Below, in pieces: positions 10,036 through 57,291 of a stretch of DNA of 64,000 bases; within the stretch, counting starts at the first letter, position 1; every line of letters starts with the position of its first letter. Both the position numbers and the translations under genes were made by a program. Where the stretch lies: the NCBI GenBank assembly GCA_965248455.1, contig OZ252105.1, forward strand, positions 2,269,360-2,333,359, written 5' to 3'. The notes beneath the pieces are model-generated. The model was not told the origin of the DNA. It made no database searches and worked only from the letters and a program-made list of their open reading frames with translations. The stretch comes from Dehalococcoidia bacterium. Lineage in GTDB: Bacteria; Chloroflexota; Dehalococcoidia; Lucifugimonadales; Australimonadaceae.

Positions 10036-10114
10036 TTACAATCACCGATGTCCACACGGCGGCGGCGAGGCCACACCAGCCTCCCGGCTGTCAACAACGT
10101 CGGTGGGAACTACA
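10036..10114 (+). mobile_element. About 80-bp terminal remnant of an IS481-family element (last codons of the transposase plus terminal inverted repeat)
   Basis: ttacaatcaccg...ccacacggcggc...tgtcaacaacgtcggtgggaactaca parallels the 3' end of the copy at 750-822 (YNHRRPHGG...). It is followed by the same tctagc flank. Confidence 0.7.
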
Positions 10115-10158
10115 TCTAGCAGGCGATCTCCGCCTGCGCGAGAAAAACGGAGGACGCT

Positions 10159-15562: not shown

Positions 15563-15569
15563 CCTCCCC

Positions 15570-15604
15570 CGTCGCTCCCGCGCAGGCGGGAGCCTCGCAT
15601 CCCC
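15570..15604. repeat. Solo REP-like GC hairpin unit between convergent genes (possible bidirectional terminator)
   Basis: The unit is cgtcgctcccgcgcaggcgggagcctcgcatcccc, with stem 15574-15581 / 15586-15593. The same unit recurs at 27748, 28107, 39232, 39342, 43808 and 45699, with a degenerate copy at 10123. Confidence 0.7.
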
Positions 15605-26462: not shown

Positions 26463-26558
26463 CACCCCAAAGTCTACCAGCGCCCGCAAAGCGTGGCGAG
26501 AATATACGCTCCCTCGCCGCGTGCGAAACGACTCCCAAACCAACGACAACTGCCCCTT

Positions 26559-26732
26559 GTATGGTGGTGAGAGGCGGGGTAGGCCGTTTGCCCCTTGGTC
26601 GCTGAGACCGTGCGTAAGCATGACCGCCCCGCCTCTATTCCACCCGCCCTACCGGTAGCCCGAACAGTTGCCTGAGCTAGTGAGCTCGTATTCACAAGGC
26701 AGGGCACGGAAGGGCAGTCAGGAGCATAGCGT
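26559..26732 (+). ncRNA. Candidate IS110 bridge (guide) RNA encoded in the non-coding left end
   Basis: A 10-bp stem (26570-26579 / 26627-26636) encloses tgcccctt, identical to the left flank at 26551-26558. It also encloses gcgtaag, the reverse complement of the right junction at 27688-27694. Further on, acagttgc at 26664-26671 equals the element's last 8 nt before the TT core (27681-27688). Confidence 0.55.
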
Positions 26733-27671
26733 ATGGACTCATCCCTCTGCATCGGCATAGACGTTTCCCAGGATTGGCTCGATCTCGCGGCTCACCCAAC
26801 CGGACAACCCCAGCGCTTCAAGACCACTCCCGCCGGCCTGCATTCCCTCGTCGAGCACTGTCGCGATGCTCAGCCCCGCCTGATTGCCTTCGAAGCCTCC
26901 GGCGGTTACGAACGCCCTCTCTCCCACGCACTCACCCACGCCCAACTCCCCTTCGCCATCCTCAACCCCCGCAACGTCCGTTACTATGCCCGCTCCACCG
27001 GCGTCCTGGCTAAGACCGACCGCATTGATGCGGCCGTCATCGCCCAGTTCGCCCACGACATCCGCATCCAGCCGAAGCCTGCGCCGTCGCGCCCCGAGCA
27101 GACCGTGCGCGATCTTGCCACCCGCCGCAATCAACTGGTGGGGGACCACACGCGGGTGCGACACCAAGCCCGGCTGTTCTCCGGCGCAAGCCTGGCCAGC
27201 GCGAAGCGCCATCTCGCCTTCCTGAAGCGGGAGATCGCGGCGGTGGAGCAGGAACTGCGGAGGGTCATCGCCCAGGATGTCTCCCTGCGCGAGCGTTGGG
27301 AGCGGCTGCGGAGCGTTCCTGGCGTGGGTGAGACCCTAGCGGCAGCGCTACTCGGCAGTATGCCGGAGCTGGGACACTTGAACCGAGCAGCGGTCGGGAT
27401 GCTGGCAGGCCTCGCCCCGCACGCCCGCGACAGCGGGAAGCGCGAGGGGAAGCGCTTCTGCTGGGGCGGGCGTGCAAACGTGCGGAGGGCGCTGTACATG
27501 CCTATGCTCTCGGCAGTCCAGCACAACCCCGTGATACGCACGTTCTACCAGCGGCTGCTGGACCAGGGTAAGCCGAGGAAGGTGGCGCTCGTCGCATGCA
27601 TGCGCAAGATGCTGACCATACTGAATGCCATCCTGCGTGAGGAGACCACCTGGGACCCACAAATCGCTTGA
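26733..27671 (+). CDS. IS110-family DEDD transposase/recombinase
   Basis: 312-aa ORF. N-terminal GIDVS, FEASGGYE and KTDRIDA form the RuvC-like DEDD set. The C-terminal part shows the SVPGVGETLAAALL...RKMLTILNAIL pattern. Confidence 0.9.
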   Translation: MDSSLCIGIDVSQDWLDLAAHPTGQPQRFKTTPAGLHSLVEHCRDAQPRLIAFEASGGYERPLSHALTHAQLPFAILNPRNVRYYARSTGVLAKTDRIDAAVIAQFAHDIRIQPKPAPSRPEQTVRDLATRRNQLVGDHTRVRHQARLFSGASLASAKRHLAFLKREIAAVEQELRRVIAQDVSLRERWERLRSVPGVGETLAAALLGSMPELGHLNRAAVGMLAGLAPHARDSGKREGKRFCWGGRANVRRALYMPMLSAVQHNPVIRTFYQRLLDQGKPRKVALVACMRKMLTILNAILREETTWDPQIA

Positions 27672-27690
27672 CCTGCTATCACAGTTGCTT

Positions 27691-28620
27691 ACGCCATAGC
27701 CCCAATGATTGCTACATTGGCCGCATACGTCGTTCCCCCGAATCCTACCGTCGTTCCCGCGAAGGCGGGAACCTCGCAGAGCTAGTCTCAGAAGTCTCCG
27801 CGCCCCTGTCAGCGGCAAAATGGTGCAACGCAAAGCGTAACAATGACTGGATGCGCTACGACATACGACTATCAGAGACGCTCTTGACACCCAATGTCGT
27901 CTTGGACGAACGAGGTCAAAGCCTTCGGTGCGACTTCTGAGACAGGCTCCGCATCCCTGTCCCCCTGCGTGACCTTCGGGCGGTTCGTGAACCGCCCGAA
28001 GGTCACGCCACCCCAAACGTACCCCCAACCCAACGACAACTGCCCATTGCGCCATCGCCCCACCAGCCCCTACATTGGTTGCATGCGTCGTTACCGCGTC
28101 CGATGGCCGTCGTTTCCACGAAAGCGGAGACTTCGTCCCTTACGGATTCTGCCGAAATGAATCAAAACGAGTCAGAATGAACCGGTTCTACGCCTGCCTC
28201 AGTCCTTCTGCCCCCTGCAGGTCCCTTCTCCCTTGAGGGGAGAAGGTTAGGATGAGGGTGAAGCCTCAAGCGCAGCCCTGGCTCCATCGCCCGCGTAGAC
28301 GATAGGAAATGCAACGAAATGCGACCAAATGCAACTGAATTAAAAGTTTCGCCACTCCTGGCCACTCCTGACGAGGCCAACCACGACCACAACCAGGGCC
28401 GGCTGGCCCACCGCATACGAGTGAGCGGAGTGCCAAACGAGGCCACGGTGACCTCATTTCCAGCCTCGCCGCTAGGAGTAAACGAGGCCAAACAGGGCCA
28501 AATAGGGCCAGGGTTCACCCCCCCCCCGTCGTTCCCGTGCCCGCATCTACGAGAGAAATGATAGGGAATGAGCGGAAATGAGCGGAGATTAAAAGTTTGC
28601 CACTCCTCGCCACTCCTGAA
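27691..28620. repeat. Mosaic repeat block R1 (two IS110-target cores/REP-like units, a 20-bp-stem palindrome, two 10-bp-iteron modules, a C10 tract)
   Basis: Its sub-elements recur at 38962-39445 and 45283-45810, in the opposite orientation. No convincing ORF. See findings for coordinates of the sub-elements. Confidence 0.75.
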
Positions 28621-34215: not shown

Positions 34216-34276
34216 CCCCACCGCAAGTAGCGACAGATAAGCCGCTTCCCCGGCTCAGTAGGCTGGTCGAATCGAG

Positions 34277-38844: not shown

Positions 38845-38961
38845 GAACCCCCATCCCCGTTTCGGCGAATACGGTTTCGGGCGAGTATAGGTTGCGCCAC
38901 CACCTCAGACCAGCACACTCCCGTGTTTTCTCGAAATCGCGGCTTCAGGAACGTTTTTCTG

Positions 38962-39445
38962 AAATAGTGGCTCCATTGGCCTCATTTGGCTCTATCTACT
39001 CCTAGCCGAGAGTTGGAAGTGAGGCCGGGGTGGACTCGTTTGCGGTTCCGTTCACTCGTGGGCACGAGACCACATGGCTTCATTTAGCGGACTCGTTGGC
39101 ATCATGCGGCCTCATTTCGTAGGATAGAGGACGGGGGGGGACAGCCTCCAGGAGTGGCCAGGAGTGGCAAAACTTTTAATTCTGTTCCGTTTTGTTCCAT
39201 TTCGTTCCATTCCCTATCGTCTACGCGGGCCGGGATGCGAGGTTCTCGCCTTCGCGGGGGCCTTTGGATACCTCCTCCCCCCTGAGCGCCCTCACCCGAT
39301 GCTTCGCATCGACCTCTCCCATATGCAGGGAGAGGTGAATACCCACCTTCGCGCGAACGACGGTTGGTTTTCGATGAAACGACGTATGCGAACTATAGTA
39401 GGGCTGAGGGAGGCAATGGCGCAATGGGCTGTTGTCGTGATTCGG
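38962..39445. repeat. Mosaic repeat block R2 (iteron modules, G8 tract, REP-like units, IS110-target core), opposite orientation to R1
   Basis: 39149-39227 is the 10-bp iteron module. 39232-39260 and 39342-39363 are REP-like units. 39378-39438 is the core. The G8 tract is at 39133-39140. Confidence 0.75.
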
Positions 39446-40182: not shown

Positions 40183-40321
40183 GGTGGCTGGCCTGTATGT
40201 GCATGTCGCTAGCTTGCGCTAGGGAGGAACCGACGAAGGGGCGACTCGACCGGCGAGCCGCTCCTGTTCGTGGCGAATGAGGTCAGTTAGACGGTAACCA
40301 TCTACGAGATAGCGCGCTAGA

Positions 40322-41365
40322 TGTAGTTCCCAGGGACGTTGTTTACAGCCGGGAGGCGGGAGTAGCCCCGCCGATGCCGCCGTGTGGACGCCGGTGATTG
40401 TAATACGCGAGGAACCCAGGCAGCGCGTTGAGCCGTTCATCATTGGAGTAGTACGGTCGCTGGTAGGCCCACTCGGCCTGCATGATCTTGTTGAACGCCT
40501 CCGCCTTGCCGTTGGTCTGAGGCCGGAAAGGCCGTGTGCGCTTCAACCGCAGGTTCCTGGCCGCCGCCGTGTCGGTGAAGATGCGGCTCACGTAGCAGGC
40601 GCCGTTGTCGGTCAGGATGCGCTCGACGGCGATGCTCTGGCGCTCGAAGTGGGCAAGTGCCCGGACAAGGAAGGCGGCGGCAGTCGGGCCGCGTTCGTCC
40701 GGCAGGGCCTCGACGTAGGCATAGCGGGAGTGGTCATCCACGGCCACGTGGAGGAAGTCGAAACCGAGGCGGGGGCCGCGCTGAGGACCGCTGTGGGTCT
40801 CCGCGAAGCCGGGCAGGATGCGCTTGCCGCCACCCTGCGGGATGCGGCCGAGTTTCTTGATGTCGAGGTGAACCAGCGCGCCGGGGCGGGCATGCTCGTA
40901 GCGAACGATCTCCCGGGTGGTGCGATGGAGCCACGCGAGGCGGTGGAGTCCGGCGCGGCGCAGGACAGCGTAGACGGTGGAGGGGGCGATGCCCAACCGC
41001 CACCCGATGCGGTGCGGCCCCCAGGCAAGCATGCGGCGTGCAGCGCAGATGGCCGCTTCCTGCAGCTGACCGGTTTGGCGGGGGCTGCGCAGGGGATGGC
41101 TGGAGCGGTCGAGGAGCGCGTCTGGCCCACCTTCACGGAACCGCCGCACCCACTTGGTGACGGTCGCGCGGGAGACGCGGAACAAGCGGGCTACTTCGGC
41201 TTGGGGCCAGCCGGACAACACCTGTTCGACCAACTCGGCGCGGGTCACGGGGGTCAAGCGTGCGTTACGATGGGTCATGAGGGGCCTCCTGTTACTGCTG
41301 GGTTTCGTTCACACAACAGCAACAGCGGGGCCTCTCACCTGTCAACAACCTCTATGGGAACTACA
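40322..41365 (-). mobile_element. Complete IS481-family insertion sequence (1044 bp) with a 6-bp target-site duplication
   Basis: Imperfect terminal inverted repeats of about 26 bp: tgtagttcccagggacgttgtttaca at 40322 against tgtagttcccatagaggttgttgaca (reverse complement) ending at 41365. They are flanked by direct GCTAGA at 40316-40321 and 41366-41371, the NCTAGN-type target known for IS481. Confidence 0.9.
40343..41278 (-). CDS. IS481-family transposase (HTH plus DDE integrase core)
   Basis: 311-aa intact ORF with an N-terminal HTH (AEVARLFRVSRATVTKWVRRF) and an rve-type core (HLDIKKLG...DNGACY...PQTNGKAEAFN). Confidence 0.95.
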   Translation of the reverse strand: MTHRNARLTPVTRAELVEQVLSGWPQAEVARLFRVSRATVTKWVRRFREGGPDALLDRSSHPLRSPRQTGQLQEAAICAARRMLAWGPHRIGWRLGIAPSTVYAVLRRAGLHRLAWLHRTTREIVRYEHARPGALVHLDIKKLGRIPQGGGKRILPGFAETHSGPQRGPRLGFDFLHVAVDDHSRYAYVEALPDERGPTAAAFLVRALAHFERQSIAVERILTDNGACYVSRIFTDTAAARNLRLKRTRPFRPQTNGKAEAFNKIMQAEWAYQRPYYSNDERLNALPGFLAYYNHRRPHGGIGGATPASRL

Positions 41366-41405
41366 GCTAGAGGTGAGGCGCAGGGCACGCCTCCGGCGCG
41401 CACCC

Positions 41406-43612: not shown

Positions 43613-43639
43613 TGTGAAAATTTTCACATATTTTCACAT
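43613..43639. promoter_or_regulatory. Perfect 16-bp palindrome TGTGAAAATTTTCACA plus a tandem ATTTTCACAT repeat upstream of nadC (operator candidate)
   Basis: 43613-43628 is exactly self-complementary. ATTTTCACAT occurs twice in tandem (43620-43629 and 43630-43639). It lies 76-100 nt upstream of the nadC start, in an AT-rich patch. Confidence 0.5.
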
Positions 43640-43686: not shown

Positions 43687-45060
43687 TTAGTCACGCGCGG
43701 CGCCTGCTGCGGTTGCTACGCGACCCTGCAGCGACCACGGCGTCGTACGCGTGATGCGCACGTTGACGATGTCGCCGAGGGCTATGCCCTCACCCGGGGG
43801 GAGAAGGGGCGAGATTCCCGCCTGCGCGGGAATGACGGGGTGGGCGTCGGGAGTGACGGGTTGGGCGTCGAAGAAGACGAGCTTGTCCGTGCGCGTGCGC
43901 CCCTGCAGGCGTCCGTGGCTGTGGCCGTCCACAAGCACCTCTTCGGTCGAGCCTAGGTAGGTGTTGTTGATGCCGGTGAGGATCGTTTCCTGCGCGGCCT
44001 CTATCGCCTTCAGGCGGCGGTGCTTCTCCTCCTGGGGCACGTCGTCGGTCATCTTGCGCTCGGCGAACGTGTTGGGGCGCGTCGAGTACATCGCAACGTG
44101 CACCTTGTCGAACCCGATGTCGCGCACCATCGCCAGCGAATCCTCGAACTGCGCATCCGTCTCCCCCGGAAAGCCCACGATGAGGTCGGTGACCATCGCG
44201 ACGCCGGAGATGGACGCTCGCACGCGGCCAACGAGTTCGCGGTACTGGGCGTTTGTGTAGCCCCGGCGCATCCTCGCCAGCACGTCGTCGTTGCCCGCCT
44301 GGAAGGGGAGGTTGATGTTCTCCATCACACGCGGCAGAGCTGCAACAGCATCGATGATGCGCTGGCTCATGTCGTTCGGGTGCGACGTCAGGAAGCGGAT
44401 CCGCGCCAGCTCCGGCACGCGCTCGTGGATGGCCTCCAGCAGGTCGGCGAGGTCAGGCGCGCCGTCGAGGTCATGCCCGTAGGAGTCGACGTTCTGCCCG
44501 AGCAGCGTCACTTCGCGCACGCCTCGCGCCGTCAGCATCCGGCACTCCTCCACCAGTTCCGCGATGGATCGCGAGACCTCTCGGCCCCGGCGGTAGGGGA
44601 TGATGCAGAACGTGCAGAACTTATCGCAGCCGTGGATGATCGGCACATGCGTCGTAACCGACGGATGGCCGGGCACGAACGGCCCTGCGCAGCCATCCGG
44701 GTCCACGCCCAGCCGGTCGCCTACGATCTCGATGAGCGGCTCGAACTGCTGCGGCTGCATGAAGACGTCGACGTAGGGGTAGCGCTTGCGGAGGTCGTCC
44801 TGCTTCGGCCCGACCATGCAGCCCATGACAGCGAGCGTCTTCTCCGGGAAGCGCTCCTTCCACGGTTTGAGCGACGTGAGCATCCCCACGACCCGATCCT
44901 CGGCCTGCTGCCGCACGACGCAGCTGTTGAGCACGATTACGTCGGCCTGTTTGGCGTTGGGCTCCCATTGCAGGCCGAGCTGCTCCAAGCCTGCCCCCAT
45001 CCGCTCGGAGTCGGCTTTGTTCATCTGACACCCAACTGTCCAAACGTGGTAACTGGTCAT
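43687..45060 (-). CDS. miaB: tRNA-i6A37 methylthiotransferase MiaB (radical SAM)
   Basis: I chose ATG 45060 (MTSYHVWTVGCQMNKADSE). The radical-SAM cluster is GCDKFCTFC, followed by a C-terminal TRAM domain. The 519-aa track version would run across tRNA-Ser. Confidence 0.9.
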   Translation of the reverse strand: MTSYHVWTVGCQMNKADSERMGAGLEQLGLQWEPNAKQADVIVLNSCVVRQQAEDRVVGMLTSLKPWKERFPEKTLAVMGCMVGPKQDDLRKRYPYVDVFMQPQQFEPLIEIVGDRLGVDPDGCAGPFVPGHPSVTTHVPIIHGCDKFCTFCIIPYRRGREVSRSIAELVEECRMLTARGVREVTLLGQNVDSYGHDLDGAPDLADLLEAIHERVPELARIRFLTSHPNDMSQRIIDAVAALPRVMENINLPFQAGNDDVLARMRRGYTNAQYRELVGRVRASISGVAMVTDLIVGFPGETDAQFEDSLAMVRDIGFDKVHVAMYSTRPNTFAERKMTDDVPQEEKHRRLKAIEAAQETILTGINNTYLGSTEEVLVDGHSHGRLQGRTRTDKLVFFDAQPVTPDAHPVIPAQAGISPLLPPGEGIALGDIVNVRITRTTPWSLQGRVATAAGAARD

Positions 45061-45127: not shown

Positions 45128-45220
45128 TGGCGGAGGGAGCGGGATTCGAACCCGCGAGGGGGCTCATCACCCCCAACCCGCTTAGCAGGCGGGCGCACTA
45201 GGCCACTATGCGATCCCTCC
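45128..45220 (-). tRNA. tRNA-Ser (anticodon GCU)
   Basis: Acceptor GGAGGGA/TCCCTCC, anticodon stem CCCGC/GCGGG with loop CTGCTAA, long variable arm (GGGGG..CCCCC), T arm GCGGG-TTCGAAT-CCCGC, encoded CCA. Confidence 0.9.
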
Positions 45221-45282: not shown

Positions 45283-45810
45283 TCAGGAGTTGTCAGGAGT
45301 GCGCAGGAGCGGCGAAACTTTTATTTTCCGCTCATTTCCGCTCATTTCCTATCATTTCTCTCGTAGACGGTGGCGATGGGGCTGGGATGCGCTTGGGGCT
45401 TCGCCCTCATCTGGCCGTCTCCAGAGGGGATGAGACCTGCGAAGAAGGGGCCGCTCCTGTTTTGCTTGTTTTCGGCCATTTCTGCCACTTATCTCACTTC
45501 TGGAGCGCGCGGTTGTTCAGGAGTGCGCAGGAGTGGGGACCCCCCATACCTTGGCCCGATTTGGCCCGATTTACCTTTGGCTGCGGGGCCGGAACGAGGC
45601 CAAGGGCGGCCTCGTGTGGCACGCCACTCACCCGTAACCGTGAGAGGGCGCCCATGAGGAACGTCCCCTGCGGGGGCCTCACGCCACCTCTCCAGGCCGG
45701 GGATGCGAGGTTCCTGCCTTCGCTGGAACGACGGAAAATATTCGCGTAAACGACGCATGCAACCAATGTAAGGGCGGGCGGGAAGATGGCGCAATGGGCA
45801 GTTGTCGCGG
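45283..45810. repeat. Mosaic repeat block R3 (iteron modules, GGGGACCCCCC tract, REP-like unit, IS110-target core)
   Basis: 45283-45370 is the iteron module. 45551-45572 holds the tttggcccga x2 iterons. 45699-45734 is a REP-like unit. 45749-45807 is the core. Confidence 0.75.
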
Positions 45811-45908
45811 GACGTTGGGGTCCGAGCGGGCGTTGGGGCGACAGGCCCGCCCTGGCAATACTCCAGTTTTGATTTCTGATATAGAAACATACCGCTGAGG
45901 CACAGGAG

Positions 45909-46274: not shown

Positions 46275-47004
46275 CTATCCCGCGTGTAGCTGCGTACGGG
46301 TGGGAGTCGGGGGAGGCGCAGGGGTGGGAGTCGGAGGAGGCGCAGGAGTGGGCGTCCAATCAGGAGGGGAGATGCGGAAATCCTCTCCGAAGCGTCCATG
46401 AGTGGTTACATTGGAAATCTCCGCGTTTTCTGTGCGAACCACCCGATCTGTCGTGCGAGCCATCCGGCTTTCCGTGCGAACCAACCGGAGCGTATCAGCG
46501 TCGATGAACAGGTCTATCGTCCGGACTAACGTTGGCGTAGGGGTTAGTCCGTTTCCTCTGAGATGATAGACGCGTGCGCCGTCCAGCATCTCATCGCTGA
46601 GCCGTTCGACGTCACCCAGGCCGGGGGGGGAGACTATATGTTGGAGGATAATCCGCCCCGGGGATGTCCTCCGGTCCATTTAAGTAGACCTCTCCATCCA
46701 CTACTACAGCTTCCTGTGTGACAAAGGGAACCCCTGCTCTAGATGCATTCTTGATATTGCGGTAGTTCTGCTCATCCTGCAGTTCGCTCTCCACCGTCAC
46801 CGTGATTCCAAGCGACCAGGAGGTACCTACGTAGACAACGGCGAATGATTCCACCTTCGCCATAGCCTCTTCCGTCGCCGCGAGTATCTCTCCGGCGCTG
46901 GCATCGTCGAACGGAAGCGTATCGGCACGGCATGCGGCAGCGAATACGGCGATGGCTAACGCGGCAACCGCGGGGATGGCAAGGGCCTTCTGCATATGGG
47001 ACAT
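46275..47004 (-). pseudogene. Putative lipoprotein with a Pro/Thr-rich tail, split by a 1-nt insertion in a G8/C8 run (46623-46630)
   Basis: The signal/lipobox is MSHMQKALAIPAVAALAIAVFAAAC. The frame changes at the homopolymer; C7 would read ...TYSLPPGLGDVERL... The tail PTPAPPPTPTPAPPPTPT is encoded by the 24-bp tandem repeat. Confidence 0.6.
46298..46357. repeat. 24-bp tandem repeat (2.5 units) encoding the Pro/Thr-rich tail of the lipoprotein
   Basis: gggtgggagtcgggggaggcgcag / gggtgggagtcggaggaggcgcag / gagtgggcgtcc. Confidence 0.8.
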
Positions 47005-50838: not shown

Positions 50839-52096
50839 CTATCCCTCCCGTTCTCCGCGACCCAATGGCATCACACAGGTCACGCTCGCGCCCCCGACCG
50901 GTCCCCTGGGCTCGACGATAAGGCGTCCGCCCAAACGCTCGGCGTACGTCCGCATGTTTGCGAAGCCGTGGCCGCGTTCCTCGTAGTTATCGGGAAGTCC
51001 TACTCCATCGTCCGACACCGACAGCCTGAGCTCACCCTGTCCGAAGTCGAGCTCGGTCAGTACCCGGCTCGCCTCGGCATGGCGAAAGGCGTTGGTAAGA
51101 GCGTTGTGGGCTATGGTGAACAGTAGACTTCTGGCCTCAATCGAGAGTGGCGGCGCCACCCCATTCTGCGTCAGCTCCGTCGACACCGACGTAACGGATG
51201 TGAACGTCGCAACGTGTCCAGCCCAGCTCCCTGCCGTCGAATATGCGGCCCATGTCTATCGGGTGTCTCAGCTGCCAGATGGCGGTTTTAGCAAGCCGTG
51301 AGGTCGCTTCGAGTCTGGCAGTGTGTTCCTCGTTCGAGTCTCCGGCAACCTGTTTGGCCGCGTCTATGCCCTGGCCGATCATGTACGCGGACTGCGCCGT
51401 CGTATCGTGAATCGCCTGAGAGAGCTCGATCCGCTCCCGTTGCAGCTCCCGCTCCCGTTGCAGCTCCCGCTCCCGCTCCACCGCCGCCTGCCTCTTGATC
51501 CGTTCGAATCGGGCGATAAGACTGACGTACAACACAATTGCGTACATCGCCGCCAACCTAGCCAGCAGCTCCTTTTCATCGCCCGCGACGAGGTCAAGAC
51601 CGAGGCCGACCGTCAAGCACACGAGGGTATAAACGACGGCCGTCATCGTCGTCCAGGCCAACCCGAGCCACAACGACGTGAAGAACACGACGAACAGCGC
51701 AAGGGCCGGGTAGTAGGCTAGGGATAGGAAGCCCTCGAACCCACGCTGGAAGATGATGCCGCCCGTGGCCAAGACTACGTACATGGCGCTGAGGAGGAGC
51801 AACCAGCGCCATGTAACCGACCTGTTCGTCAGGAGCCGGTAGTGGACCAGGCCATTGAGCGTCACCAGCGGCACAAGCAGGAACGCATATTCGATGTGCC
51901 CCCCGTAATACCAGAAGCCCGGCCGGTAGACAAACTGGACCGCAACGACAAGGCAGATGAACCAGCGACCCCAGACTGAAACTCCTGCGGCGTACTCAAC
52001 TACGTCCGGGTCGGACACGATGGTTGATGGAAACCGCTTCGCTATGGCTCCTATCTCAGGCTTTAACAAGTTCAGGCACCTACCTAATACACACAT
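50839..52096 (-). pseudogene. Membrane sensor histidine kinase (HisKA_3 plus HATPase_c, NarX/DesK type), split by a frameshift near 51215-51235
   Basis: ORF 51137-52096 has about 5 TM helices, a coiled ERELQRERELQRER linker and the H-box LSQAIHDTTAQSAY. ORF 50839-51186, and its frame extended upstream (WAGHVATFTSVTSV...), carries the N-box FTIAHNALTNAFRHA and SVSDDGVGLP. Confidence 0.75.
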
Positions 52097-56253: not shown

Positions 56254-56345
56254 CCATCGCCCGCTATGACCAGCAGCCGAGGTAACCGCCTTAGGCCGCT
56301 TTGCTGGCGACTCAGAAGGCTCGGCGTTTGGTAAGTGCCCCTAGG

Positions 56346-57291
56346 TGTAGTTCCCAGGGACGTTGTTTACAGGCATGAGGCGGGAGTAGCCCCGCCGATG
56401 CCGCCGTGTGGACGCCGGTGATTGTAATACGCGAGGAACCCAGGCAGCGCGTCGAGCCGCTCGCGGTTGGAGTAGTACGGTCGCTGGTACGCCCACTCGG
56501 CCTGCATGATCTTGTTGAACGCCTCCGCCTTGCCGTTGGTCTGAGGCCGGAAAGGCCGCGTGCGCTTCAATCGCAGGTTCCTTGCCGCCGCCGTGTCGGT
56601 GAAGATGCGGCTCACGTAGCAGGCGCCGTTGTCGGTCAGGATGCGCTCGACGGCGATGCTCTGGCGCTCGAAGTGGGCAAGAGCCCGGACAAGGAAGGCG
56701 GCGGCAGTCGGGCCGCGTTCGTCCGGCAGGGCCTCGACGTAGGCATAGCGGGAGTGGTCATCCACGGCCACGTGGAGGAAGTCGAAACCGAGGCGGGGGC
56801 CGCGCTGAGGACCGCTGTGGGTCTCCGCGAAGCCGGGCAGGATGCGCTTGCCGCCACCCTGCGGGATGCGGCCGAGTTTCTTGATGTCGAGGTGAACCAG
56901 CGCGCCCGGGCGGGCATGCTCGTAGCGAACGATCTCCCGGGTGGTGCGATGGAGCCACGCGAGGCGGTGGAGTCCGGCGCGGCGCAGGACAGCGTAGACG
57001 GTGGAGGGGGCGATGCCCAACCTCCACCCGATGCGGTGTGACCCCCAGGCGAGCATGTGTCGTGCAGTGCAGATGGCCGCTTCCTGCAGCTGACCGGTTT
57101 GGCGGGGGCTGCGCAGGGGACGGCTGGAGCGGTCGTGGAGCGCGTCCGATCCGCCTTCGCGGAACCGCCGCACCCACTTGGCGACAGTCGCGCGGGAGAC
57201 GCGGAACAAGCGGGCTACTTCGGCCTGGGGCAGCCAGCCAACACCTGTTCGACCAATTCGGCTACGGGCCGCTCGCGGAGTGTTAGCGCCC
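56346..57291 (-). mobile_element. IS481-family copy, defective: internal 1-nt deletion, divergent/mosaic 5' part, left inverted repeat missing
   Basis: Near-identical to 40322-41225 from the terminal repeat (tgtagttcccagggacgttgtttaca at 56346) up to about 57225. It then reads ggctg-ccccag against ggctggccccaag (frameshift). Identity drops and ends at about 57291. No gggaactaca terminus was found. The 391-aa track ORF is a chimeric read-through. Confidence 0.8.

Follow-up and report, generated by a model that had tools for sequence, protein, structure and literature searches.

A multi-copy non-coding repeat built of helically phased decamers in one uncultured Chloroflexota lineage, with probable affinity to bacterial mosaic elements

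In Escherichia coli and its relatives, bacterial interspersed mosaic elements (BIMEs) combine repetitive extragenic palindromes (REPs, also called palindromic units, PUs) with other conserved motifs, and a role in DNA architecture and protein binding has been proposed for them. Modular miniature inverted-repeat transposable elements (MITEs) are exemplified by the pneumococcal BOX element, built as boxA-(boxB)n-boxC with a boxB of about 45 bp, and by the Correia element of Neisseria. Replication iterons are tandem units of 17–22 bp that accompany the initiator gene at one origin. Here we describe a repeat module, termed S, that occurs in a 64,000-nt stretch of the genome of a Dehalococcoidia bacterium (GenBank assembly GCA_965248455.1, contig OZ252105.1, positions 2,269,360 to 2,333,359; hereafter the window). 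S is a multi-copy non-coding repeat restricted to one uncultured Chloroflexota lineage. We consider it probable, with some reserve, that S is a non-coding module of a lineage-restricted composite interspersed repeat family that has a BIME-like organisation and includes at least one MITE-like insertion. S is previously undescribed, and the repeat family to which it belongs is new, though of a kind already known.

The window contains four copies of S, c1 to c4, in three regions. Copies c1 and c2 lie on the side of an LtaE-like (Beta_elim_lyase) gene (locus A), c3 lies between a 61-aa open reading frame (ORF) with an amidase gene and an oppositely oriented HAD hydrolase gene (locus B), and c4 lies between tRNA-Ser(GCT) with a MiaB-like gene and an oppositely oriented mazE (locus C). 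An earlier note on this DNA had placed the four modules in these intergenic positions, and their coordinates, strands and neighbours all proved correct (Table 1). The four copies can be aligned over about 110 nt. Each begins with a 5' piece, CGTAGACGATAGG or ATCTACGAGAGAAATGATAGG, followed by two to three decamers, the pseudo-unit AATTAAAAGTTT and then one to three decamers of the form GCCACTCCTG. The decamers of the first array consist of AATG, a 4-nt word and two connector nucleotides. The AATG core, AAAAGTTT and ACTCCTG are nearly invariant across copies. Two types of array can be distinguished. C-type arrays have the scaffold CGTAGACGATAGG, are followed by a further module, Z, and show position-specific connectors (GA, CA, TG) common to arrays at different loci. 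G-type arrays have the scaffold ATCTACGAGAGR-AATGATAGG, are followed by unique sequence and repeat the whole unit perfectly, the connector as well (AATGAGCGGA x3).

The pattern greatly exceeds what chance would give. The double unit GCCACTCCTGGCCACTCCTG (two GCCACTCCTG decamers, up to three mismatches) was matched five times in the window, with 0.00 matches expected from shuffles, and AATG-N6-AATG-N6-AATG (at most one mismatch) was matched six times, with 0.05 expected. The fifth match to the former is an orphan array at 45518–45537, and the matches to the latter include a fifth, divergent array at 28156–28187; the earlier note had listed neither. A second block of AAAYNNGGCC units, also described by the earlier note, is equally real (five matches against 0.06 expected). 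Tandem Repeats Finder returned a period of 10 for each array, and across 38 distinct arrays from the window and the sister strains the spacing of the AATG cores is 10 in all but two intervals. The 10-bp phasing of the units is thereby confirmed, and the words read earlier in each copy were recovered unchanged.

The distribution of S was assessed with an nhmmer profile built from the four window copies, which yielded 59, 7 and 3 copies, 69 in total, in the window and 16 related contigs. These copies are spread over nine unlinked loci and comprise 38 distinct arrays, 36 of which were scored. The contigs include syntenic stretches of sister strains from ENA assemblies (L002, L003 and L012–L021), in which the flanking genes are 95–99% identical to those of the window at the DNA level; S copies were recovered from these strains, which establishes the presence of the repeat in related genomes. 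A protein search with the translation of a spurious ORF running across S, Z and S gave 93 ORFs, every one from this lineage's ENA assemblies. The S peptide SGVARSGETFNSVAFG or a close variant is present in about 70, and four led to further unlinked loci (L022–L025). Scaffold pattern scans of the GTDB representative genomes (one per species), JGI metagenome contigs and IMG/VR gave no true match to S. The matches obtained there were due to chance, being CT-microsatellites or an unrelated Bacteroidales metagenome-assembled genome, and these collections are thus uninformative on the wider distribution. S was also absent from about 60 kb (L008–L011) of the relative P0002, which has an amidohydrolase of at least 90% identity in a different synteny. 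No account of elements of this sort was found in searches of the literature.

When the three intergenic regions were compared with one another, S proved to be part of a larger mosaic, which the earlier note had not recognised. The modules Y (about 75 nt), X (a REP-like hairpin), S and Z (about 150 nt, containing the AAAYNNGGCC block) are common to all three loci, and their order is variable: X..Y-X'-H-S-Z-S at locus A, Y-X-H-S-Z at locus B and Y-X-Z-S at locus C, where H is a G-rich hairpin module. Alignment showed that C-type S and Z form one conserved non-coding composite of about 240 nt at no fewer than seven unlinked loci, to which c1 and the Z module of locus A belong. The composite holds three short decamer minisatellites, namely AATG with its word and two further nucleotides, GCCACTCCTG, and GGCCAAAY. 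On contig L022 there are four copies of S, three of them about 190 bp apart and each of these three preceded by a REP-like palindrome, an arrangement that resembles a BIME.

A fourth locus, D, documents an insertion. In L016–L021 a 486-bp block (L016 15431–15916) carrying Y-X-H-S-Z-poly-C-X lies between moaE and an MFS gene. The block ends in 16-nt inverted repeats, GYAACTGTTCAGAGTT, with 15 of 16 positions matching, and is flanked by an 8-bp direct duplication, CCCCGGCT; the latter is present as a single copy in the window (34248–34255) and in L002, which represent the empty site. This is the signature of a non-autonomous transposable element, seen in one copy only. Several attributes of a MITE are present: the insertion is short and non-coding and has a target duplication and an empty site, and S is multi-copy (69 matches at nine loci). 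The inverted ends are absent from the three window loci and from the other S loci (L022–L025), and within the approximately 0.45 Mb examined the end sequence is confined to locus D, with no autonomous element bearing such ends. The earlier note had held that ordinary REP or MITE models do not explain the pattern. S itself is indeed no REP, a REP being an imperfect palindrome of 20–40 nt; S has no palindrome, no inverted repeat and no predicted base pairs. The statement was nevertheless too strong, since the X module is such a palindrome, interleaved with S, and the 486-bp insertion has terminal inverted repeats and a duplication.

The mosaic is also a place of insertion and rearrangement. In the window, an IS110-family insertion sequence (IS) splits a Y module into two halves (26531–26558 and 27688–27740) that share CTT at the junction, and the uninterrupted counterpart of this Y is found at L002 7967–8044. 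A different IS110-family element (L016 8221–9400) interrupts a REP-like hairpin in its left arm, between GTCATT and CCAGCGAAGGCTGGAATCC, with the empty site at L012 9401. IS110 relatives were also found in or beside the mosaics of L012, L017, L019 and L025, and several IS110 lineages appear to home to modules of this mosaic. The segment from ltaE to moaE (about 7 kb) is inverted in L012–L015 (about 14.3–21.4 kb) relative to the window (28.7–34.3 kb), with a breakpoint in the X hairpin that the mosaic of locus A has in common with the locus D element: L013 15402–15628 is 99% identical to L016 15350–15576 and then continues with locus A sequence. The composite is reshuffled by recombination between its modules. 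As a side observation, about 174 nt of non-coding sequence precede the transposase gene of the window IS110 element; in IS110-family elements elsewhere, the region upstream of the transposase encodes a guide (bridge) RNA.

Next, the variability of the decamers was quantified in the 36 distinct arrays with hand-checked registers, as the fraction of differing positions. The AATG core differs by 0–3% within arrays and 0–4% between loci, the 4-nt word by 9–31% within arrays and 47–65% between loci, and the two connector nucleotides by 42–47% and 51–60%, respectively. For the window copies, word identity is 0.94 within arrays versus 0.30 between arrays, and the observed within-array identity was reached in 0 of 5000 permutations. 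The claim that the word is more alike within a copy than between loci is therefore borne out. Strict uniformity within each copy describes the window well, but only 13 of the 36 arrays are fully uniform and 23 are mixed. The notion that the word varies freely between copies does not hold. Among 98 units, CAAC was counted 26 times, AGCG 21, GAAC 11, AGAC 9, AGAG 6, and CAAT, ATAG and ATCG 5 times each; the four commonest words account for 67 units, and unlinked loci use the same words. The mixed array AGAC/CGAC/AGAC is itself found at two unlinked loci (locus B of L018 and L025). Because a few words and a mixed array recur at unlinked loci, and because scaffold and right flank track the word class, the words appear to be subfamily markers passed on by inheritance, not addresses specific to a locus.

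Between strains, S turns over rapidly. In orthologous arrays of sister strains the word differs in all units together: locus B carries GAAC x3 in the window, L002, L003, L020 and L021 and CAAC x2–3 in L012–L017 and L019. L002 and L003 carry AGAC x3 in their counterpart of c1, and the c2 ortholog has AGAG x2. Strains also differ in the number of units at one locus, which is two or three for AATG and one to three for GCCACTCCTG. The states ATCG/AGCG/AGCG, ATCG/ATCG/AGCG and AGCG x3, all found at a single locus, form steps that would fit slippage. Orthologous S copies are only 60–87% identical versus 95–99% for the flanking genes, the exception being the locus B copies of L002 and L003 (100%), and the rate of divergence in orthologous intergenic regions is five to ten times that of the flanking genes. 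A copy often matches a paralog best; the second copy of locus A in the window, for example, has an identity of 0.90 to a copy on L022 and of 0.80–0.84 to its orthologs. At locus B of L020 the connectors TG and CG of the CAAC allele are kept, and the word in those two units is GAAC. Since orthologs diverge, unit number is polymorphic and the nearest copy is often a paralog, the pattern seems to point to slippage or unequal exchange within arrays together with frequent ectopic conversion or replacement between copies. The suggestion of gene conversion made in the earlier note is well supported by these data. Sister strains have a complete C-type S copy in the part of the tRNA-Ser/mazE spacer where the window has an orphan ACTCCTG array, and arrays akin to a fifth, divergent array of locus A are present in L017, L019 and L021 (Table 1).

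By the strength of AAA/AAT with a 10-bp period in a parameter-free scan, the four copies take ranks 1, 2, 5 and 7 in the window. Curvature was estimated with a Trifonov-type wedge model as the bend over 60 bp, and only the ranks of the following values should be trusted: c4 and c2 reach 71 and 60 degrees (both in the top 0.1% of the window), c1 44 degrees (97.8th percentile), c3 34 degrees (89.7th percentile) and Z of locus A 74 degrees, the window maximum, relative to a window mean of 20 degrees. Strong curvature, as expected from the A-tracts, is thus predicted for c2 and c4 but less so for c1 and c3. From the A-tracts phased every helical turn, S and the Z end are predicted to be intrinsically bent AT-rich islands in a genome of 64% G+C. 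The period of 10 common to all three arrays of one element is the best hint that helical phase matters. Outside the S copies, ATTTTCACAT x2 at window positions 43620–43639 gives the fourth-strongest phased A-tract signal.

Compared with described elements, the mosaic resembles BIMEs in organisation. Both are extragenic and multi-copy, with REP-like palindromes alternating with other motifs in a variable arrangement; both are targets of site-specific insertion sequences and substrates for rearrangement, and both are proposed to act through DNA architecture and protein binding. S differs in that it is not palindromic, has no sequence similarity to known elements and is associated with three helically phased decamer arrays, and one copy of the mosaic is bounded by inverted repeats and a target duplication. 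To our knowledge, mobilisation of REPs by REP-associated tyrosine transposases (RAYT, TnpA-REP) does not produce terminal inverted repeats with target duplication, and no RAYT gene was found in the gene tables of the retrieved loci and the window. With BOX and Correia elements the mosaic has in common its small size, its non-coding nature and its many copies, presence/absence polymorphism with inverted ends and duplication (locus D), and internal module copy numbers that vary between copies and strains. In contrast to these, the variable unit is 10 bp and not the ~45 bp of boxB, inverted ends occur at one of nine loci, no cognate autonomous IS was identified, and S has no RNA-structure signal. 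The short tandemly repeated repetitive (STRR) sequences of heterocystous cyanobacteria, as well as the minisatellites known as variable number tandem repeats (VNTR) and mycobacterial interspersed repetitive units (MIRU), are likewise short, dispersed, intergenic, lineage-specific and polymorphic in number; S arrays, however, have only two to three units, a period of one helical turn, a fixed scaffold and subfamily words. Replication iterons and type II ParR/parC sites also have direct repeats in helical phase near AT-rich bent DNA, but the S units are 10 bp long, lie at many chromosomal loci without an adjacent rep or par gene and vary in word within a genome.

Few mosaic or MITE-type repeats are known from bacteria, and the family, from an uncultured Chloroflexota lineage, is a well-delimited addition to them. 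Its interior is unusual, with three minisatellites of exactly one helical-turn period and words marking subfamilies. It is also relevant to genome plasticity, through the apparent homing of IS110 elements into Y and X modules, the breakpoint of the 7-kb inversion in X and the fast intergenic divergence, and to annotation, as public assemblies contain at least 93 spurious ORF calls that stem from the mosaics.

Under the composite-repeat reading, the canonical unit would consist of Y, the hairpin X, the hairpin H, S, Z, poly-C and X, and would insert as a non-autonomous element with terminal inverted repeats and target duplication, as seen once at locus D. The word would mark the subfamily and be passed on when a module is copied or converted, which would account for its recurrence at unlinked loci and for paralog-like copies. 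Slipped-strand mispairing or unequal exchange would then gain or lose whole decamers, giving the observed polymorphism in unit number, and patchy conversion between arrays may generate the mixed, chimeric ones. If the element has a cellular role, it would most likely be architectural, as a docking or bending site for a nucleoid-associated protein, in line with the proposals for BIMEs.

Several observations weigh against this reading. The terminal inverted repeat occurs at locus D only, so that most copies are not demonstrable as transposon insertions, and the mosaic may be the cargo of one particular element. Slippage of whole units should homogenise all ten positions, yet the connectors differ far more than the word within arrays. 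The GAAC word on the connectors of the CAAC allele in L020 needs short-patch conversion or selection on the word; either short-patch heteroduplex repair between arrays or such selection could have produced it. The exact period of 10 in all three arrays is not predicted by neutral slippage and points to selection for helical phase, and so to a possible function. The curvature estimates can be used here as ranks alone. The near-invariance of AATG, AAAAGTTT and ACTCCTG reflects either constraint or recent spread.

An alternative is that S is an array of protein-binding sites, comparable to chromosomal iterons or an operator, on which a dimeric or oligomeric protein would touch AATG, ACTCCTG or both on one helix face every 10 bp, with selection for phase and for likeness of the word. 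The exact 10-bp spacing, seen in nearly all 38 arrays and shared by three different arrays within one element, would be expected of such sites, as would the almost invariant motifs next to connectors that are free to vary, the homogeneous word beside the non-homogeneous connector, and the G/C switch of all units at locus B of L020 with connectors otherwise unchanged. S also lies upstream of, and co-oriented with, the next gene at six of nine loci. Nevertheless, we consider this alternative unlikely: there is no candidate protein and no rep, par or regulator gene that is consistently adjacent, S lies anywhere between about 50 and more than 330 bp from a putative −10 box or gene start, and at locus D, L022 and L024, a third of the nine loci, it is anti-oriented. 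Moreover, a genome with different words would have to supply a protein for each, unless the protein does not touch the word, in which case selection for its uniformity has no basis, and 23 of 36 arrays are mixed. A wider form of the idea, in which an architectural or regulatory protein docks in helical phase on all three decamer arrays and the word is kept alike by selection for cooperative binding or coherent bending, is in our opinion improbable. If true, it would mean that a mobile BIME- or MITE-like element distributes ready-made, tunable bent-DNA and protein-binding cassettes upstream of genes in this lineage.

A structured RNA provides another possible explanation, in which S and Z are, or are part of, a non-coding RNA (ncRNA) or a 5' leader and the two ACUCCUG units, paired with YAGGAGU and CGGAG of Z, close a domain of about 150 nt. 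RNAalifold did place ACUCCUG opposite YAGGAGU (seven pairs) and CUCC opposite GGAG (four pairs), nested, in 10 of 10 copies, together with a conserved GAGGCC...GGCCUC hairpin with a variable loop, and the H module weakly resembles the whalefall-1 motif (Rfam RF01762; 25.5 bits, E = 0.007, below the gathering score of 37), a match that covers H and not S. Yet the long-range pairs are invariant and so uninformative, with a covariation term of 0.14 kcal/mol; the folding z-scores of the two strands are −0.55 and −1.12; and for S by itself 0 pairs are predicted. The element is not framed by a promoter or terminator, its orientation to flanking genes is inconsistent, and a 10-nt period is meaningless for RNA. 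A search of Rfam 15 at the gathering threshold gave tRNAs alone, and relaxing it to E values of up to 5 brought no match overlapping S or Z, so that no described ncRNA family accounts for either. We therefore regard this explanation as very unlikely. The least probable explanation is a purely local birth of each array by recent duplication of one decamer, without subfamilies or exchange between loci. It would agree with the perfect whole-unit repeats of the G-type arrays and with the polymorphic unit number between strains. It is contradicted by the word, similarity and recurrence data, as the position-specific connectors of C-type arrays are common to different loci, the same words and mixed arrays occur at unlinked loci, and copies are often nearer to paralogs than to orthologs. 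The composite repeat family thus remains our preferred reading.

Other functional assignments were tried and rejected. S is not coding, as five of 10 copies have stops in all six frames and no 3-nt periodicity is seen in the variable columns. Neither a sigma-70-like promoter nor a terminator was found within S. Its phased A-tracts recall an UP-element or curved promoter DNA, which would sit at a constant place, some −40 to −60 from a promoter and co-oriented with it, but the distances to candidate −10 boxes and gene starts given above do not fit this role. An apparent tendency of S to point towards the gene downstream is broken at the three anti-oriented loci. A replication iteron set was dismissed on account of the 10-bp units, the at least nine loci and the lack of an adjacent rep gene. 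Sigma-54, extracytoplasmic function (ECF)-type, IHF, ARG-box and Fur-box sites, inspected by eye, do not fit in spacing or sequence. A hairpin between the G-type word GAGCGG and CCGCTC of the first GCCGCTCCTG unit was discarded because the G variant and the word do not co-occur across copies, and the complementarity of the c1 word (ATGCAAC) to GTTGCAT in Y is true at locus A only.

Table 1. Coordinates of S copies, accompanying modules and insertion sequences in the window
Feature	Position	Strand	Description
S copy c1, C-type (locus A)	28291..28371	+	CGTAGACGATAGG; AATG-word units GCAAC/GCGAC/GCAAC; AATTAAAAGTTT; GCCACTCCTG x2; runs straight into Z; nhmmer 28275-28386, 101.9 bits
S copy c2, G-type (locus A)	28541..28618	+	ATCTACGAGAGAAATGATAGG; GAGCG x2; ATTAAAAGTTT; GCCACTCCT followed by C or G, x2; nhmmer 98.8 bits; ~80 bp upstream of LtaE-like gene
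S copy c3, C-type (locus B)	39149..39227	-	Word GGAAC x3; nhmmer 92.4 bits; 3' on the minus strand: Z, then 61-aa ORF and amidase
S copy c4, G-type (locus C)	45283..45370	-	GAGCG x2; ACTCCTG units x3; nhmmer 99.4 bits
tRNA-Ser(GCT)	45128-45220	-	c4 immediately upstream
Fifth, divergent AATG-N6 decamer array	28156..28187	+	AATGAATCAA AACGAGTCAG AATGAACCGG; without AAAAGTTT/GCCACTCCTG part
Orphan ACTCCTG decamer array	45518..45537	-	CCCACTCCTGCGCACTCCTG; without AATG array
Z module, locus A	28372..28520	+	GGCCAAC/GGCCAAAY decamers; GAGGCC...GGCCTC hairpin; CTAGGAGTAAAC; poly-C tail
Z module, locus B	38960..39148	-	
Z module, locus C	45551..45636	-	Upstream, not downstream, of c4
Y module, locus A	28023..28098	+	CCAACGACAACTGCCCATTGCGCC...CATTGGTTGCATGCGTCGTT; 85.9% identity to 45820-45743, 82% to 39438-39378
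Y module, locus B	39378..39438	-	
Y module, locus C	45743..45820	-	
X module, REP-like hairpin	27748..27778	+	CCGTCGTTCCCGCGAAGGCGGGAACCTCGCA
Other X copies	~39340-39370	-	
	~45704-45734	-	
	15569-15599		
	43809-43845		
H module, locus B	39288..39338	-	CTCTCCC...GGGAGAGG hairpin; TCGATGCGAAGCATCG hairpin; G-rich tail
H module counterpart, locus A	~28220-28275	+	
IS110-family IS	26559..27687	+	Splits Y module; transposase ORF 26733-27671 (+), Pfam DEDD_Tnp_IS110 and Transposase_20
IS481-family IS	40316-41370		HTH_28, rve, LZ_Tnp_IS481; partial copies 244-828 and 56341-56924; ends also 10057-10130

Further copies and variants of the accompanying modules were noted. The REP-like hairpin at 43809–43845, GTCATTCCCGCGCAGGCGGGAATC on the minus strand, lies inside the 3' part of the MiaB-like gene, where it is read in frame as PVIPAQAGISP; the product of this gene has 419 to 449 aa depending on the strain. 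H-like sequence is also present at about 8240–8290 of L002, and the H position in L016 is occupied by GGGAGAGGGTTAGGGTGAGGG, whose four G3 runs fit a G-quadruplex-type pattern. A 177-bp unit (window 27776–27952, also L013 15629–15805) ends in 21-nt inverted repeats that are 86% complementary, and it is adjoined by a perfect 20-nt palindrome with a 2-nt loop (window 27967–28008). The unit and the palindrome may be further small elements of the same mosaic.

Beside mazE, the sister strains L012–L021 (about positions 1–2000) differ in gene content, with AAA_15/AAA_21 plus DUF4276, an N6_N4 methyltransferase plus Mrr, a 1136-aa SIR2_2 protein, HEPN and PemK, which looks like a variable defence or toxin–antitoxin island anchored at the mosaic. 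The 584-nt segments of the IS481-family element found at two other places in the window are 96–97% identical. Other tandem repeats in the window comprise a 24-bp unit x2.5 (46298–46356) and an 18-bp unit x2.5 (51431–51475).

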